Positions 3,374 through 63,144 of a stretch of DNA of 64,000 nt are shown piece after piece (the first letter of the stretch is position 1; each line of letters starts with the position of its first letter). The DNA is from Candidatus Campbellbacteria bacterium GW2011_OD1_34_28. GTDB taxonomy: Bacteria; Patescibacteriota; Minisyncoccia; Phycocordibacterales; UBA12079. The stretch covers positions 357,722-421,721 of the forward strand of contig CP011215.1 of assembly GCA_001029775.1 (NCBI GenBank), read 5' to 3'. The position numbers and the translations under genes were made by a program. The notes beneath the pieces were generated by a model. The model had not been told where the DNA came from and ran no database searches. It saw nothing but the letters and a program-made list of their open reading frames with translations.

Positions 3374-3514
3374 GGAATTTGAAATTTGAAACATTTGAAT
3401 TTTAAAATCTTAAAATTACAAAAAGTAAAAAGTTCGCACGGGAGTTTTATTGAAGTATGAATTTTTTAATTTTTGACTTTAAAAATAATTGATATTTGAG
3501 AAATAAAAAATCAC

Positions 3515-3548
3515 CCAGCAGAAGCGCTTCTGCTGGGTGATGTGGTTG
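3515..3548 (-). terminator. Minus-strand rho-independent terminator (tcacccagcagaagc-gcttctgctgggtga + T-run on minus strand)
   Basis: 14-bp perfect stem; on minus strand followed by TTTTTTATTT. Confidence 0.6.
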
Positions 3549-4092
3549 GTGTCCTCGGACGCGTTCCGAGAACCCCCAGAGGCCGGCTTTGTGCCGGTTT
3601 ATCCGTGGAGGGGAATTTCACCCCTCCTGATCGATGGTCGCCGATGTGGGGCGTGTCCTTGACCCAAAACGCAGGCAATCTGACTTGCGTCTGTCGTTGG
3701 CACATGCCGTTGGCAACCTTCCTTGCCGTCGGTATCTCCACCGGAATCATCTATCGTGGCCTGCTAGCAAGCCACAACTCCTCCGGTACCGACTTCCAGA
3801 ATCCGTCAAGACGCTTTTTGTCTTCCATGGCGTGGCGGAACCAGTCTAAAATCGCTATGCGTGGCGATTCTCGACGGGATTTTCTCGTGCGACTGGCCCA
3901 GTATTTTAGGGCCGGCCGGTCTTGGAACTTCAGCCGAAGGCTATCGGGCAGGTGGTGGTGGCCCCGGCGACGATCGAAATCCGTTCGGGTCGCGGGGGTG
4001 CAGGGGTCTGGTTGTCGGCTTTCAGCAAGGTTTTGGCGATTGCGGGATGTCCTTTGTTCATGGCGTTTTTTCCTCCTCTGTTGTGGTTGGTG
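3541..4092 (-). other. GC-rich (~58-60%) ~0.55 kb non-coding island flanked by 11-bp direct repeats TGTGGTTGGTG; candidate structured RNA or foreign insertion
   Basis: GC far above the window background. All ORFs here are R/W/P-rich nonsense in every frame. Direct repeats at 3541-3551 and 4082-4092. Minus-strand terminator abuts it. Contains a 44-codon minus-strand ORF with a GGAGGA SD. Confidence 0.4.
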
Positions 4093-4430
4093 AAGAACAA
4101 TATTTTATAAAAACATCTTAGCACTCGTCAAAAATTTGTCAAGTGTTTATTTTGTATACATCTTTTGTTTTTATCGTATTTTTGTAATTCAAAATTAGAT
4201 ATTCAATTAAAATTTTAAATTTGAAATTACCTCCATACCCTAAACGCTATATGCTAAACCCTATTAGAATGTTGACTTTGAATCAGGTCTTTGATAAGAT
4301 ACTGTCTAGTTAATTAAAGCCTTGCGCTTTATTAGCGACGTAGAGTGAAAGAAATGAAAATTCATTTTCATTTCTGAACCGAGGAGCTAATATAAGGGCG
4401 CCTGCCGCTTTTATTTTAATTTTAAAAACA

Positions 4431-10344: not shown

Positions 10345-10635
10345 ATGAGAGAAAAAACCGCCTATGTTTATATAATGGCAAGTAAGAAAAACGGAACATT
10401 GTATACGGGCGTAACATCTAATTTAGAAAAAAGAGTTTGGGAACACAAAAATAATATTGTAAAAAGTTTTACACAAAAATACAATGTTCACAATTTAGTT
10501 TATTTTGAATTCGGAGAAAATATTTTATCTGCGATAGAAAGAGAGAAACAAATTAAAAGTGGCTCTAGAAAAAAGAAAATAGAATTGATTGAAAAAGATA
10601 ATCCTGAATGGAATGATTTATCAAAAAACTTTTGA
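10345..10635 (+). CDS. GIY-YIG nuclease family protein (96 aa)
   Basis: YVYIMAS..GTLYTGVTSNLEKRVWEHK GIY...YIG motif. Confidence 0.8.
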   Translation: MREKTAYVYIMASKKNGTLYTGVTSNLEKRVWEHKNNIVKSFTQKYNVHNLVYFEFGENILSAIEREKQIKSGSRKKKIELIEKDNPEWNDLSKNF

Positions 10636-38810: not shown

Positions 38811-38884
38811 AGTTGGTAGTTGGTAGTTGGTAGTTGGTAGTTGGTAGTTGGTAGTTGGTAGTTGGTAGTTGGTAGTTGGTAGTT
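38811..38884. repeat. Heptanucleotide microsatellite (GTTGGTA)x~10 abutting the tRNA 5' end
   Basis: Unit matches the tRNA D-loop sequence cagttggtag. Confidence 0.85.
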
Positions 38885-38957
38885 GCCATCTTAGCTCAGT
38901 TGGTAGAGCAACGGTTTTGTAAACCGTAGGTCCTCGGTTCGAATCCGAGAGATGGCT
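38885..38957 (+). tRNA. tRNA-Thr (anticodon UGU)
   Basis: Cloverleaf: acceptor gccatct/agatggc, D-arm gctc-agttggtag-agc, anticodon stem acggt/accgt with loop tttgtaa, T-arm ctcgg-ttcgaat-ccgag. Confidence 0.85.
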
Positions 38958-59053: not shown

Positions 59054-60664
59054 GTGGAAAACAAAACAGAAACAAAGCATTGGAGTGAATCTTTTGCCGA
59101 CGAGGTGTTGGAAAAATCTCCTAATAAAAATATCTATACTTGTTCGGCTGGAATCAGCCCATCGGGCACTATTCACTTTGGAAATTTTAGAGATGTAATC
59201 ACTTCTCTCGGTGTTTTTGAAGAATTAAAGAAAAGAGGTAAAAAAACGAGAATAATTTTTTCTTGGGACGATTTTGATCGTTTTAGAAAAGTGCCCGTAG
59301 GGATAGACGCTTCTTTTGAGCAATACATCGGATTGCCGTTGTCAGTAGTCCCTTGTCCCGAAGGAAAATATTCTTCTTATGCAGAAAAATACGAAAAAGA
59401 ATTTGAAGCCTCAATGAAAGATTTGGGAATTGATTTGGAATATCGTTATCAGTCACAAGAATATAAATCTGGAAAGTATGACGATTTGATTATAAAGGCC
59501 CTTCAAAACAGAGAGAAAATCGCTGATATTCTTTTGTCTTTTATGACAGAAAAAGGAAAGGAAAACAAAAGTATTGATCCACAAGAATACAAAAAAAACT
59601 TTTATCCTGTTTCCGTTTATTCTTCTTTTACAGGCAAAGACAATACAAAAGTGACGGCCTATGACGGAGATAAAAAAATTACCTATAAGTGTTTTGATAC
59701 AAAAAAGGAAGAAACTATTGATATTACAGAAACAAGAATCGTCAAGTTGGCATGGAAAGTAGATTGGCCAATGAGGTGGTTTTTTGAGGGGGTAGATTTT
59801 GAACCAGGAGGAAAAGACCACTCTTCTCCGGGGGGCAGTTTTGATGTAGCAAGTGTTATTGTGAAAGAAATTTTTGAAAGTGCTGCTCCTGTTTTCAAAG
59901 GTTACGAGTTTGTTGGATTGCAAGGGCTAGGGGGAAAAATGTCTGGATCAAAAGGGAACAGTGCTTCTCCAAAACAGTTGTTGGAAATTTATACTCCAAA
60001 TATTTTAAAATGGCTGTATCTGAGAAAAAGACCAAAACAAAGTTTTTTGTTGGCTTTTGATTCTGAGATCTATAGACAATACAGTGAGTTTGATAAAGAG
60101 GTTGCCGATTTTCTTTCTGGGACTTTAGACATTTCTAGTCGGGTATCTCTTGCTTTAGCGGGACTGACAAAAGAGAATTCTTTTAAAAACCCGATTCCAT
60201 TTAGACAGATAGTCGGTTTTGGGCAAATTGTACAATGGAATAAAGAAAAATTGTTAACTATTTTGAAAGAGCTTGAACTTGATTATGATATTCAATCTAT
60301 TGATGACAGACTGCCAAGAGCGAAAGCGTGGTTGGAAACATACAACAGAGATGAACTTGTAGAGTTGAGAGAAAATATAAATATTGATTTTGTAAAAACA
60401 ATTTCTGAAAAAGATAAAGAAAATATTCAAAAATTGAGAGAGGGATTATCGGTAAATGAAAAGATGTCGGTGAAAGAATTGGAAACTTTTGTTTATGATA
60501 TTCCAAAGGACAAAAATTTGGACGAAAAAGAAAATGCTGTTTTGCAAAGAGATTTTTTCAGAGTGGTTTATAACCTTTTAGTTAGCAAAGACAAGGGCCC
60601 GAGACTCTCAACATTTTTGTGGGCGGTGGATAGGGAAAAGGTTCTTGCTCTGTTGAAAATTTAA
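59054..60664 (+). CDS. lysK: Lysyl-tRNA synthetase, class I
   Basis: HWSESFADEV, SPSGTIHFGNFRDV (HIGH-like), SWDDFDRFRKVP, KMSGSKGN (KMSKS); GTG start. Confidence 0.85.
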   Translation: MENKTETKHWSESFADEVLEKSPNKNIYTCSAGISPSGTIHFGNFRDVITSLGVFEELKKRGKKTRIIFSWDDFDRFRKVPVGIDASFEQYIGLPLSVVPCPEGKYSSYAEKYEKEFEASMKDLGIDLEYRYQSQEYKSGKYDDLIIKALQNREKIADILLSFMTEKGKENKSIDPQEYKKNFYPVSVYSSFTGKDNTKVTAYDGDKKITYKCFDTKKEETIDITETRIVKLAWKVDWPMRWFFEGVDFEPGGKDHSSPGGSFDVASVIVKEIFESAAPVFKGYEFVGLQGLGGKMSGSKGNSASPKQLLEIYTPNILKWLYLRKRPKQSFLLAFDSEIYRQYSEFDKEVADFLSGTLDISSRVSLALAGLTKENSFKNPIPFRQIVGFGQIVQWNKEKLLTILKELELDYDIQSIDDRLPRAKAWLETYNRDELVELRENINIDFVKTISEKDKENIQKLREGLSVNEKMSVKELETFVYDIPKDKNLDEKENAVLQRDFFRVVYNLLVSKDKGPRLSTFLWAVDREKVLALLKI

Positions 60665-60728: not shown

Positions 60729-61259
60729 ATGTTAAAAATCAGATTACAAAGAGTTGGAAGAAAGCACGATCCTTCATTCAGGATTGTTTTAACTGATTCT
60801 AAAAATGGTCCAAAGAGCGGTAAATTCTTGGAAATTCTTGGAAATTATGACGCTAAAAAAGACACCAAGGTTGTTAATGGAGAAAGAGTAAAAGAATTGA
60901 TTTCTCAAGGAGCACAGATCTCAGATACTGTTCACAATATTTTGATAAGTGAAAAGATAATAGAGGGAAAGAAGAAAAATGTTTTGCCAAGCAAATCTCC
61001 TGTGGTAGATGAAGCAAAGATAAAAGCAGAAGAAGAAGCAAAAAAGGCAAAGGAAGAAGCTGAGGCAAAGGCTAGAGCCGAGGCACAAGAGGCTCAGAAA
61101 AAAGCAGAGGCAGAAGAAAAGGCAAAAGCTGAAGCAGAAGCACAGGCTGAAAAGGAAGCAAAGAAAGAAGAAACTCCAGCAGAAGAAGTCCCGGTTGTAG
61201 AAGAAGCACCAGTTGTTGCGGAAACTACTGAAACTGTTGAAACTGCCGAAACTGAATAA
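60729..61259 (+). CDS. rpsP: 30S ribosomal protein S16 with Ala/Glu/Lys-rich C-terminal extension
   Basis: MLKIRLQRVGRKHDPSFRIV; tail of (AEAK)-type repeats. Confidence 0.88.
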   Translation: MLKIRLQRVGRKHDPSFRIVLTDSKNGPKSGKFLEILGNYDAKKDTKVVNGERVKELISQGAQISDTVHNILISEKIIEGKKKNVLPSKSPVVDEAKIKAEEEAKKAKEEAEAKARAEAQEAQKKAEAEEKAKAEAEAQAEKEAKKEETPAEEVPVVEEAPVVAETTETVETAETE

Positions 61260-61276
61260 TAAAAAATTTAAAAAAA

Positions 61277-61310
61277 CTTGCAGGGACTCGGTCCCTGCAA
61301 GTTTTTTGTT
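61277..61310 (+). terminator. Rho-independent terminator cttgcaggga-ctcgg-tccctgcaag + T6 (degenerate copy at 3199-3230)
   Basis: 10-bp perfect stem, T-run. Confidence 0.7.
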
Positions 61311-61344
61311 TCATACACACACATATAAACACAGAAAAATTTTT

Positions 61345-61572
61345 GAAAATAAAAATACCCCCATCAGTCGCGAGACGACGGGGGCATTATGTTGTTTTCG
61401 GTCTCTGATGTGAGACCGGAGAACCTGATGTTCGTCTTTGGTGATGGTTCTCATCCCACCAAGACTATCCCTGTAATACCCCGTAACTAGCCGAGAGGCG
61501 CTAATGGTGTCACGAAGCCTAGGCTGTTGAACTTCTGTCGAAACACCCGCCTAGTGATGTTTGATATTTAAA
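61345..61572 (-). ncRNA. Candidate ~220-nt structured sRNA (unclassified) with consensus promoter and terminator
   Basis: Minus-strand TTGACA-16-TAATAT (+ coords 61594-61599 / 61572-61577). GC-enriched body. Terminator cccccgucgucucgcgacugauggggg + U-run at 61345-61383. No ORF. Confidence 0.45.
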
Positions 61573-61715
61573 TATTAGCACACCTTAAAAATCTGTCAAT
61601 GGTTTTGGATAATTCAAAAAAGTCTTTATAGACTTTCGTTTTTATAAATCATATACTTATGATATGAAATCCCTTTGGAAAATATTGGGATATTAAAAGC
61701 TAATTTTTTAATGAA

Positions 61716-62216
61716 ATGAATAAAATAACTATAATTATATTGTTGATCATTTTCATTGCCGCAGGATTTTTCTTTTTAAGAGGAGATGAAGACGCATGGA
61801 TTTGTGAAGATGGTATTTGGGTAAAGTATGGGAACCCTTCTACTGAAGTTCCAACAGAACCTTGTGACGATGGTGTGGTAAGTAATTTTGAAGAATGTAT
61901 TGCAGATGCAAACAATGTTGTGATGGAAAGTTTTCCTCGGCAATGTCGCGATTCAAAGACAGGCAATTCTTTTGTGGAAGATATCGGTCTAAATGATAAC
62001 GCGTCTACTACTGGTACGGGAGAAAAATTTTTTTGTCCTGCTGATAGAACAGAAACAGATTTTTGTATAGAGCTTTATGAACCAGTTTGTGCGACTGTAA
62101 ATATTCAGTGTATCAAAGCACCTTGTGACCCTATAAAAGAAACATTTTCAAATTCTTGTACGGCTTGTATCAATCCTTTGGTAGAAAGTTATACGCAAGG
62201 GGAGTGTAAAAATTAG
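61716..62216 (+). CDS. Secreted Cys-rich protein with C-terminal Kazal-like domain
   Basis: Signal/TM; C-terminal C..LYEPVCATV...C..PC.P..ETFSNSCTAC...Y.QGEC. Confidence 0.5.
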   Translation: MNKITIIILLIIFIAAGFFFLRGDEDAWICEDGIWVKYGNPSTEVPTEPCDDGVVSNFEECIADANNVVMESFPRQCRDSKTGNSFVEDIGLNDNASTTGTGEKFFCPADRTETDFCIELYEPVCATVNIQCIKAPCDPIKETFSNSCTACINPLVESYTQGECKN

Positions 62217-62283: not shown

Positions 62284-62433
62284 TTGTATTTAAAAATAAA
62301 ATAAAAAACCCCGCACGAATGCGGGGTTAGACAGACGGGGAGAGGTTCTTGTTCTCCAACCAGCTTCGTTGACGAAGGGGTTGAAATTACCCTTTTAGGG
62401 GACTCGTGGTCCCACCCTGCTGTCTTTTCGAGG

Positions 62434-62655
62434 CTACTCGTTGATCGGAGGAAACGCCTCCGCAACAAGCTTGTTCGCCATATCGGTGGCGAATTCCCGG
62501 GCCTCATCGGGGCTGATTCTCAGCTCAGCTGCCGTCGTCCCGATTTGTCGGGCCACCACGTTGGGCATCAAACTGCCGATGCCCTTTGACCGCGCCTGGT
62601 TTAAAACAAGCAGGTACGCGATCTGGTTTCTTCTTTCTTCTGTCATCTTTGCCAT
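62434..62655 (-). CDS. GC-rich (~58%) small hypothetical protein (74 aa), possible DNA-binding regulator
   Basis: GGAGG SD 7 nt before ATG. Inverted repeat TTCACGAAGGATTCGTGGAA upstream at ~62680. Minus-strand terminator ccccgcattcgtgcgggg + U-run at 62293-62316. Confidence 0.5.
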   Translation of the reverse strand: MAKMTEERRNQIAYLLVLNQARSKGIGSLMPNVVARQIGTTAAELRISPDEAREFATDMANKLVAEAFPPINE

Positions 62656-63144
62656 AGGAAACCTCCTTTTCGGCAATTTTTCCACGAATCCTTCGTGAAT
62701 AGGGTAGCAGAGAATCCTCAAACTACAATACAATTATACATCATATATTTGTATTTGTAAATGGTGTGAGTTTCATAAAATTCACAAACTTGGTTTTTGC
62801 TTAATACTTATACCTTAATCCTTAAGCCTTGGTTTCTATACCCTAACCGCTACACCCTATACCCTGAATGAGTTTTCCACAATTGACAAATCTTTTTGTT
62901 GACAAACTGTTATTTTTTAGATAAACTCTTACCCATCATATATCGGATCTAAGATTGAGTTTCGGCAGAACCCCTGATATTTATTAATAGCGCGCACATT
63001 AATAAAACCGTCCGAGGCAGAAGGATGGTCAAATTTATTTTGTTTAAGGGTGATATTAAATAAGAAAAAGTTAGAGAAACCTCTTTGAGGTGACTTTTTT
63101 GTTTTAGTATTGTCAATTTTATTAGCGAAAAAATAGAAAACATC

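Follow-up and report, generated by a model that had tools for sequence, protein, structure and literature searches.

We identified, on the minus strand of the window, what is very probably a genuine structured small RNA (sRNA) gene of a new, previously undescribed family. The window is the whole 64-kb stretch of Campbellbacteria DNA analysed here, and positions refer to it unless a homologous locus (L-number) is named. As a whole, the locus is best explained as a gene of this kind whose ~215-nt product acts as a trans-acting regulator, a reading that we consider probable. The mechanism proposed for it, in which the RNA would act in trans as an antisense regulator of ribosome-binding sites (RBS) through a maskable anti-RBS seed, is tentative and modelled on the invariant segments of the RNA.

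Promoter, predicted transcript ends and genomic context

A promoter scan returned a minus-strand TTGACA −35 hexamer (61599–61594) and a TAATAT −10 hexamer (61577–61572) separated by a 16-nt spacer. This was the top-scoring match of the region, with 10 of 12 positions and the TG of an extended −10 (Table 1), and it is close to the consensus of a sigma-70-type promoter. The pattern TTGACA-N13-TGnTAnnAT occurs twice in the 64-kb window, compared with 0.02 occurrences expected, and the second copy belongs to another GC-rich structured unit. The body (61385–61566) has a GC content of 48–49%, compared with 35% for the window and genome and 23–30% for the immediate flanks. At its 3' end, the terminator hairpin CCCCCGUCGUCUCGCGACUGAUGGGGG (61384–61358), followed by UAUUUUUAUUUU, was recovered by RNAfold, RNAalifold and the covariance model. 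Among the five homologues, the terminator helix is 92.8% paired, with one-sided G·U/A-U changes, and the U-run is kept in all five. A simple terminator scanner did not call the hairpin, presumably because its stem is imperfect. The predicted RNA would thus run from 61565 to ~61349 on the minus strand, a length of ~215 nt. Overall, the locus has the generic features of a stand-alone bacterial sRNA gene, i.e., its own promoter, its own Rho-independent terminator and no ORF conservation.

Most of what the first-pass annotation had described at this locus was borne out, including the positions and 16-nt spacing of the −35 and −10 elements, the GC-enriched body, the terminator with its U-run, the lack of coding potential (no ORF is conserved in the five copies) and an orphan RNA gene of ~220 nt near rpsP, which we place at ~215–220 nt, downstream of and convergent to rpsP. 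Each sequence element that it listed lies at the position given for it or no more than two bases away. The hairpin that it had written as GGUCUC-UGAUGU-GAGACC is real, but the letters were those of the plus strand; the RNA reads GGUCUC-ACAUCA-GAGACC (61417–61400).

Table 1. Features of the sRNA locus in the window and homologous copies of the RNA
Feature	Location	Strand	Basis or remark
−35 hexamer TTGACA	61594..61599	-	promoter scan; invariant in 5/5 homologues
Extended −10 TGcTAATAT (TG at 61580–61579)	61572..61580	-	promoter scan and pattern count
Predicted 5' end (~A61565) and unpaired 5' tail	61555..61565	-	start placed from the −10 spacing
P1: outer CUAGGC/GCCUAG, GGG bulge, inner UGUUU/GAACA, variable apical hairpin	61519..61554	-	RNAalifold, pair counts
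P2: 10-bp helix GCUUCGUGAC/GUUACGGGGU and apical 4-bp hairpin, loop with UCUC	61478..61518	-	pair counts
Junction J2/3 AUUACAGGGAUA	61466..61477	-	near-invariant; unpaired in consensus
P3: hairpin GUCUUGGUG/CACCAAAGAC, loop segment GAGAACC (61452–61446)	61434..61465	-	pair counts, alignment
Invariant 24-nt block CAAAGACGAACAUCAGGUUCUCCG	61417..61440	-	identical in 5/5 homologues
P4: variable hairpin GGUCUC-ACAUCA-GAGACC	61400..61417	-	hairpin in 5/5, sequences differ
Variable A-rich linker	61385..61399	-	poor conservation in sequence and length
Intrinsic terminator: hairpin 61384–61358 and U-run UAUUUUUAUUUU	61346..61384	-	RNAfold, RNAalifold, pair counts
Palindromic terminator of convergent rpsP	61271..61307		17-bp stem, T-runs on both sides; context, outside the RNA
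Homologous RNA copy	L017:4626-4849		synteny
Homologous RNA copy	L018:960-1185		synteny
Homologous RNA copy	L037:133-373		synteny
Homologous RNA copy	L038:41-266		synteny

The RNA gene is convergent to rpsP (60729–61259, plus strand), whose palindromic terminator could serve as a back-stop for the sRNA. Its divergent neighbour encodes a 166-aa Cys-rich, secreted-looking protein (61716–62216, plus strand), greA and a class I lysS lie upstream of the locus, and rpoB lies downstream. A riboswitch or cis-regulatory leader was rejected, as the minus strand downstream of the RNA holds only two terminators and the convergent rpsP; the body had no cis-regulatory match in Rfam. As a side observation, the lysyl-tRNA synthetase between greA and rpsP in the window (59054–60664) is of class I (PF01921), and the same position in L034 (832–2325) is taken by a class II-type synthetase (PF00152 and an anticodon-binding domain).

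Homologues and distribution

Homologues were sought by syntenic look-ups through homologues of the Cys-rich protein and of rpsP, and those through the Cys-rich protein yielded four further copies (Table 1). These are mutually distinct, and each folds into the same four hairpins and has TTGACA, a TG-extended −10 (CAGTAT, TAGTAT or TATTAT, with TG ahead of each) and a terminator with a U-run. Wherever the contig extends as far as rpsP, the copy is convergent to that gene and located downstream of it. The five lineages are close (95–98% identity in the N-terminal domain of S16, the rpsP product), and the five RNA copies share 70–86% identity, comparable to the adjacent protein-coding DNA; past the terminator, identity in the spacer falls to 29–71%. 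The divergent neighbour is the Cys-rich protein in the window, L017 and L038, and a 180-aa protein in L018 and L037.

Neither nhmmer nor inspection by eye revealed an RNA copy at the syntenic site of L001, the species representative closest to the window (LysRS 76% identical); L001 has both rpsP and the Cys-rich protein, but an ArsR-like gene takes the place of the RNA. The RNA was also absent from the syntenic site in L019–L022, L033, L035 and L036. A GC-rich 73-aa gene occupies the same slot in L019–L022 and L033 (S16 N-terminal domain 87% identical), and nothing comparable was present there in L035. L034 and L039 were uninformative, their contigs stopping short of the syntenic site.

A covariance model built from the five sequences (R1) scored its own copies at 216–257 bits and everything else in the 165 kb searched at ≤17 bits. 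It retrieved no sixth copy, and the single 17-bit match lies in a GC-rich unit, at 3497–3653. In the metagenome collection, the invariant 20-mer AAGACGAACATCAGGTTCTC occurred at nine loci, all of them chance matches, and by eye seven of the nine fall in one shared GC-rich, coding-like sequence; the collection evidently lacks the JGI sample that bears the identical copy, and the 20-mer scan is therefore silent on distribution. Viral contigs searched with three patterns gave chance seed-length matches only, and phage and plasmid records showed no similarity to the RNA. In the sequences covered here, the RNA family occurs in a single genus-level Campbellbacteria clade within CPR/Patescibacteria.

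As for the lineage itself, contigs of GCA_000990765.1, GCA_003489565.1 and a JGI metagenome are identical to the window, and its S16 shares 98% identity with the S16 of 'Candidatus Campbellbacteria bacterium RIFCSPLOWO2_01_FULL_34_15'. Candidatus Campbellbacteria is the label that suits the window best, although the nearest species representatives in the genome collection carry the name Saccharibacteria. The public labels of L001–L003, L018 and L022 conflict, ranging over Saccharibacteria, Campbellbacteria, Pacebacteria and even Gammaproteobacteria (L003), and such disagreement among close relatives makes record-title taxonomy unreliable in this CPR region.

Consensus fold and covariation

The minus strand folds with z = −5.0 (0 of 200 shuffles equal), compared with z = −2.5 for the plus strand (RNAfold). 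For the five sequences, RNAalifold and a hand-checked structure agreed on the consensus layout, which consists of an unpaired 5' tail, four independent hairpins (P1–P4) and the terminator. The tail segment CAAACAUC (61563–61556) is invariant in the alignment, and the predicted ensembles give the tail a mean unpaired probability of 0.7–0.9 in four of the five sequences. Helices 1–3, which make up P1, are 100% paired, and the P1 tip differs in sequence and length among the five. P2 (helix 4) is also 100% paired, with three pairs changed on both sides and four on one side; it occurs in five sequence versions, every one of which retains 10/10 bp. Three to four of its pairs are G·U and would turn into C·A mismatches if the plus strand were the one transcribed, which marks the minus strand as the RNA strand. 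The P2 loop is predicted to be unpaired in most homologues. In P3 (helix 6), 92.7% of cells are paired and one G-C pair has become A-U through changes on both sides; the P3 loop segment GAGAACC is invariant. An insertion of ~16 nt is found in P4 of L037.

Within the invariant block, the segment GGUUCUC (61425–61419) is complementary to the P3 loop GAGAACC. The resulting loop-to-block helix (helix 7) has 7/7 pairs in all five copies and eight pairs in L017 and L038, and it takes the place of P3 in the minimum-energy fold of L038, where P3 is weakened. It lies beyond a covariation test because its two sides never vary.

Over 66 pairs (327 cells), 94.8% were paired, compared with 38–49% when the partners were slid by 1–3 columns. 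Seven pairs changed on both sides, and column shuffles matched the paired percentage in 0 of 500 and the covariation score in 4 of 500; with only five distinct sequences from one narrow clade, this covariation is real yet statistically thin. Read from this alignment, compensated variation in the stems combined with invariant loops and junctions is the pattern of a selected RNA structure.

The interval between rpsP and rpoB is variable among relatives, containing the sRNA, the GC-rich 73-aa gene, an ArsR-like gene or the 180-aa gene. Such a hot spot would also suit a locus without function, a GC-rich relic of DNA that is foreign or has decayed. It might be what is left of the 3' part of a small GC-rich gene cassette, of which the window has two others, and its transcription would be incidental or absent; the 3' end of a 610-nt unit at 4142–3497 does weakly resemble the 3' half of the sRNA (17 bits). 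However, four helices are kept by compensatory changes across five lineages at an overall RNA identity of 70–86%, and little or nothing has changed in the promoter, terminator and 24-nt block, whereas identity past the terminator is down to 29–71%. A remnant of this kind is highly improbable.

Coding potential

No ORF on either strand was conserved in the five copies. The 47-aa ORF on the RNA strand of the window has lost its AUG in L017 and L038. On the plus strand, GGAG-N6-AUG at 61418–61430 opens MFVFGDGSHPTKTIPVIPRN, the start of an MFVF... ORF whose frame is shifted by a 2-nt indel in L037 and whose stop is moved in L038. A type I toxin-antitoxin system was rejected, as this opposite-strand ORF is frameshifted in L037, variable in length and not hydrophobic.

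The same stretch admits an explanation in which the RNA is the cis-antisense partner of the plus-strand micro-ORF, either as a type I toxin-antitoxin pair or as a small-protein gene, and in which the block is conserved through its overlap with the plus-strand ribosome-binding site and start. In 5/5 copies, the plus strand indeed retains the Shine-Dalgarno (SD)-like motif, the start codon and the four opening codons (MFVF) without change. Beyond them the ORF does not hold, as the L037 frame shifts after residue 8, the stop position differs in L038 and the peptide is not hydrophobic. Moreover, the changes at residues 5, 6, 9, 15, 19 and 20 coincide exactly with the varying positions of P3 and P2, where the RNA shows compensation, and each G·U pair corresponds to a C·A mismatch on the plus strand, which folds more poorly. 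The promoter scan found no plus-strand promoter from the rpsP terminator to the ORF. We regard an antisense partnership with this micro-ORF as very unlikely.

Comparison with known RNA families

At the gathering thresholds, Rfam 15 returned only two tRNAs from the 64-kb window, and with lax filters (E ≤ 10) over 61200–61750 (551 nt), the body was unmatched and terminator look-alikes alone were reported. Searches of the whole window (E ≤ 0.1) and of L037 and L038 (E ≤ 5) likewise produced only tRNAs or terminator-like noise. ARAGORN detected two tRNAs and no tmRNA in the window, and Rfam recognised no ribozyme or riboswitch core. The first-pass annotation had considered one of three islands in the window, this locus among them, to be probably a housekeeping RNA (6S, SRP, RNase P or tmRNA), with divergent or novel RNAs as a further possibility, and had named a strong Rfam match to a well-known family as one of the outcomes that would count against its reading. 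No such match was obtained even at E ≤ 10, and together with the absence of a tmRNA call and the four-hairpin fold, this turns the evidence against the housekeeping assignment and in favour of a divergent or novel RNA.

tmRNA is marked by a tRNA-like domain (acceptor stem, T-arm and 3' CCA), a tag reading frame and a 5' GGGG...UUCGAC. The likeness of the window copy to tmRNA (RF00023) lies in its structured part, which opens GGCGGGUG-UUUCGACAG, reminiscent of GGGG...UUCGAC. The tmRNA-like element that had been reported, UUCGACAG, is present at 61542–61535, inside the variable P1 tip, but is not conserved; it occurs only in the window lineage, with UUUCGGUAA in L017, L018 and L038 and UUUCGAAAG in L037, and on this alignment its tmRNA-like look is coincidental. 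tmRNA was rejected on the lack of a T-arm, CCA end or tag frame and on the negative results of ARAGORN and Rfam (gathering thresholds and E ≤ 10); with regard to RF00023, the sRNA differs in having no tRNA-like domain, CCA end, tag ORF or pseudoknot series.

6S RNA is a rod with a large central bubble, closed by a stem in which the 5' end pairs with the 3' end. The sRNA resembles it (RF00013 and related families) as an abundant-looking orphan of ~200 nt that is GC-rich relative to an AT-rich genome, but it has no closing stem, central bubble or terminal stem and carries its own terminator hairpin. A 6S-like long bulged hairpin had been raised as a question for fold prediction; the consensus shows four independent hairpins, with unpaired ends and no central bubble, and Rfam gave no 6S match, which led us to reject this family.

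SRP RNA (4.5S or large bacterial) is characterised by helix 8 (domain IV), which is capped by a GNRA tetraloop and has conserved loops, both symmetric and asymmetric. It was rejected, as there was no Rfam match at E ≤ 10 and P1–P4 contain no GNRA loop or GGAAGCAGC-like sequence on reading the alignment. Bacterial RNase P RNA has ~300–400 nt and the conserved regions CR-I to CR-V; it was rejected because ~215 nt is too short and Rfam gave no RNase P match.

A GC-rich orphan transcript unit with a strong promoter in an AT-rich genome, together with the resemblance of GGCGGGUGUUUCGACAG in the window copy to a tmRNA 5' end, might still suggest that a tmRNA, 6S, SRP or RNase P RNA has diverged in CPR too far for the curated models to recognise it. 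However, no Rfam match to these families appeared at E ≤ 10 over the 551 nt or in two homologues, ARAGORN was negative, UUCGACAG is replaced in L017, L018 and L038, and the RNA shows no T-arm, CCA end, tag frame, end pairing, central bubble or GNRA-capped helix 8. It is also too short, at ~215 nt, for a bacterial RNase P RNA, and the syntenic site of close relatives is without a copy. The chance of such a housekeeping RNA thus appears minimal, and, judged from sequence, the sRNA is not tmRNA, 6S, SRP or RNase P RNA.

In the literature, we found no description of this RNA, nor of regulatory or structured RNAs of CPR/Patescibacteria. The locus resembles the GC-IGR candidates in being a long GC-enriched intergenic region with a covarying multi-stem structure (PMC11109978). 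That survey contains no mention of CPR, Patescibacteria, Parcubacteria or Saccharibacteria (PMC11109978). The sRNA differs from the GC-IGR candidates in that Rfam 15 holds no motif matching it. In a further published survey, the GC-IGR approach has reportedly yielded candidate structured ncRNAs from GC-rich intergenic regions of AT-rich genomes.

Proposed mechanism

Regulation by the RNA would occur in trans, by way of those of its segments that are unpaired and invariant. Putative seeds are the 5' tail CAAACAUC, the UCUC of the P2 loop and, above all, the block part GAACAUCAGGUUCUCC. The complement of the 24-nt block is GGAGAACCUGAUG, a Shine-Dalgarno-like sequence with an AUG. Its 3' part, GAACAUCAGGUUCUCC, is partly unpaired in the predicted ensembles, and the complement of that part, GGAGAACCUGAUGUUC, reads as an SD sequence placed 6 nt ahead of a start codon; given this resemblance to a ribosome-binding site and start codon, the block would pair with the translation-initiation regions of a few mRNAs. 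A second UUCUC is found in the P2 loop and a second AACAUC in the 5' tail. The P3 loop GAGAACC and the block segment GGUUCUC could form either an H-type pseudoknot or a mutually exclusive helix, the latter hiding the seed.

Within the 64-kb window, the target search with the block, tail, J2/3 and P2 loop gave nothing beyond the tail of the background; non-self duplexes reached −21 to −25 kcal/mol at best, values to be expected there after many tests. An apparent GGAGAAC site in the neighbouring 3'UTR was rejected, as it reads AAAGAAC in L018 and L037. By a crude rule, SD-like motifs precede only ~5 of 61 gene calls (long ORFs) in the window, so an anti-SD seed would have few clients.

The closest parallel to the proposed mechanism may be with the RsaE/RoxS-type sRNAs of Firmicutes, which attack ribosome-binding sites through repeated pyrimidine-rich unpaired motifs. 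Like them, the present RNA has a gene of its own, with a separate promoter and an intrinsic terminator. It likewise presents conserved, unpaired C/U-rich motifs that are complementary to an SD-like sequence, as UUCUC occurs both in a hairpin loop and in a linker. In contrast to them, it is twice as long and far more structured, shows no sequence or covariance-model similarity to them and belongs to a host that seems to use few SD sequences.

The density of structure is above that of most base-pairing sRNAs, and a protein-binding or tertiary-structure role fits equally well. With no target in the window, few SD motifs and this dense structure, a structured RNA acting by shape stays a serious rival to the antisense mechanism, although we rate it as rather unlikely; it could be a protein-binding scaffold or sponge, a lineage-specific stand-in for a housekeeping RNA, or an RNA that senses a ligand or has catalytic activity, with the invariant junctions and the loop-to-block pseudoknot as its tertiary core. 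Such a role is in keeping with ~59 nested pairs in ~215 nt at a GC content 14 points above the genome, with several distinct unpaired stretches that never vary (GGG bulge, J2/3, P3 loop and block), with a possible H-type pseudoknot of 7/7 invariant pairs and with a consensus-strength promoter shared in the window only with another GC-rich structured unit. On the other hand, the adjacent partner gene is inconsistent (Cys-rich versus 180-aa protein), Rfam shows no recognisable ribozyme or riboswitch core, and the narrow distribution is odd for a housekeeping function, though sampling is poor.

Other GC-rich units in the window

A transcript-like GC-rich (58–62%) unit of ~610 nt was observed on the minus strand at 3497–4142. 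Its promoter, TTGACAAATTTTTGACGAGTGCTAAGAT (4142–4115), has almost the architecture of the sRNA promoter, its terminator (~3541–3503) is strong, and it folds with an RNAfold z of −5.8 and without a match in Rfam. The sole ORF, of 43 aa, lies at the 5' end and has a GAGGAGG Shine-Dalgarno motif. The 3' part comprises GGUUCUCGG, a hairpin, ACCACAUCA and the terminator, and bears the weak likeness to the sRNA 3' half (17 bits with R1).

The GC-rich 73-aa gene (MAKMTEERRNQIAYL...) is found in the window at 62295–62745 on the minus strand, with a strong AAGGAGG Shine-Dalgarno motif and no Pfam match. It has counterparts at L019:2484-2939, L018:2469-2917, L037:1633-2047 and L017:5571-6019, and in L019 and L033 it sits downstream of rpsP, in the slot that the sRNA occupies in the window. 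Its conserved 3'UTR of ~140 nt (62295–62436) contains hairpins with compensatory changes between lineages and may be a second structured RNA element. The small ORFs of these two GC-rich islands carry strong SD motifs (GAGGAGG and AAGGAGG), unlike most genes of the window.

A more far-reaching idea, which we hold to be improbable, is that the sRNA, the 610-nt unit (4142–3497) and the 3'UTR (62295–62436) would form a small Campbellbacteria-specific set of structure-dense, GC-rich transcripts with strong promoters and that the loop-to-block pseudoknot would act as a switch exposing or hiding an anti-SD/anti-start seed, which would constitute a new RNA class. If true, this would be a post-transcriptional control device in ultra-small bacteria with seemingly almost no known regulatory RNAs and, in the window, few genes led by an SD sequence.

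Two further features of the window were recorded. A GTTGGTA tandem heptamer of ~10 copies (38812–38884) abuts the 5' end of tRNA-Thr (38885–38957). A 96-aa ORF (10345–10635) is GIY-YIG-like by eye and is followed, up to 11081, by ~450 nt of GC-rich (up to 69%), seemingly repetitive sequence reading ...HCERSEAIH... and ...DCFATLAMT... in several frames.

Implications

A new family among stand-alone bacterial sRNAs is in itself unsurprising. If the RNA is merely genus-restricted, it would be a useful annotation and a new Rfam-type family that holds no surprise for specialists. The locus offers a clean, covariation-backed candidate with defined ends and hence an entry point into the RNA biology of CPR. 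If the block proves to be a translation-initiation seed, it would offer a first way to approach how these reduced bacteria, which depend on hosts, regulate genes after transcription.
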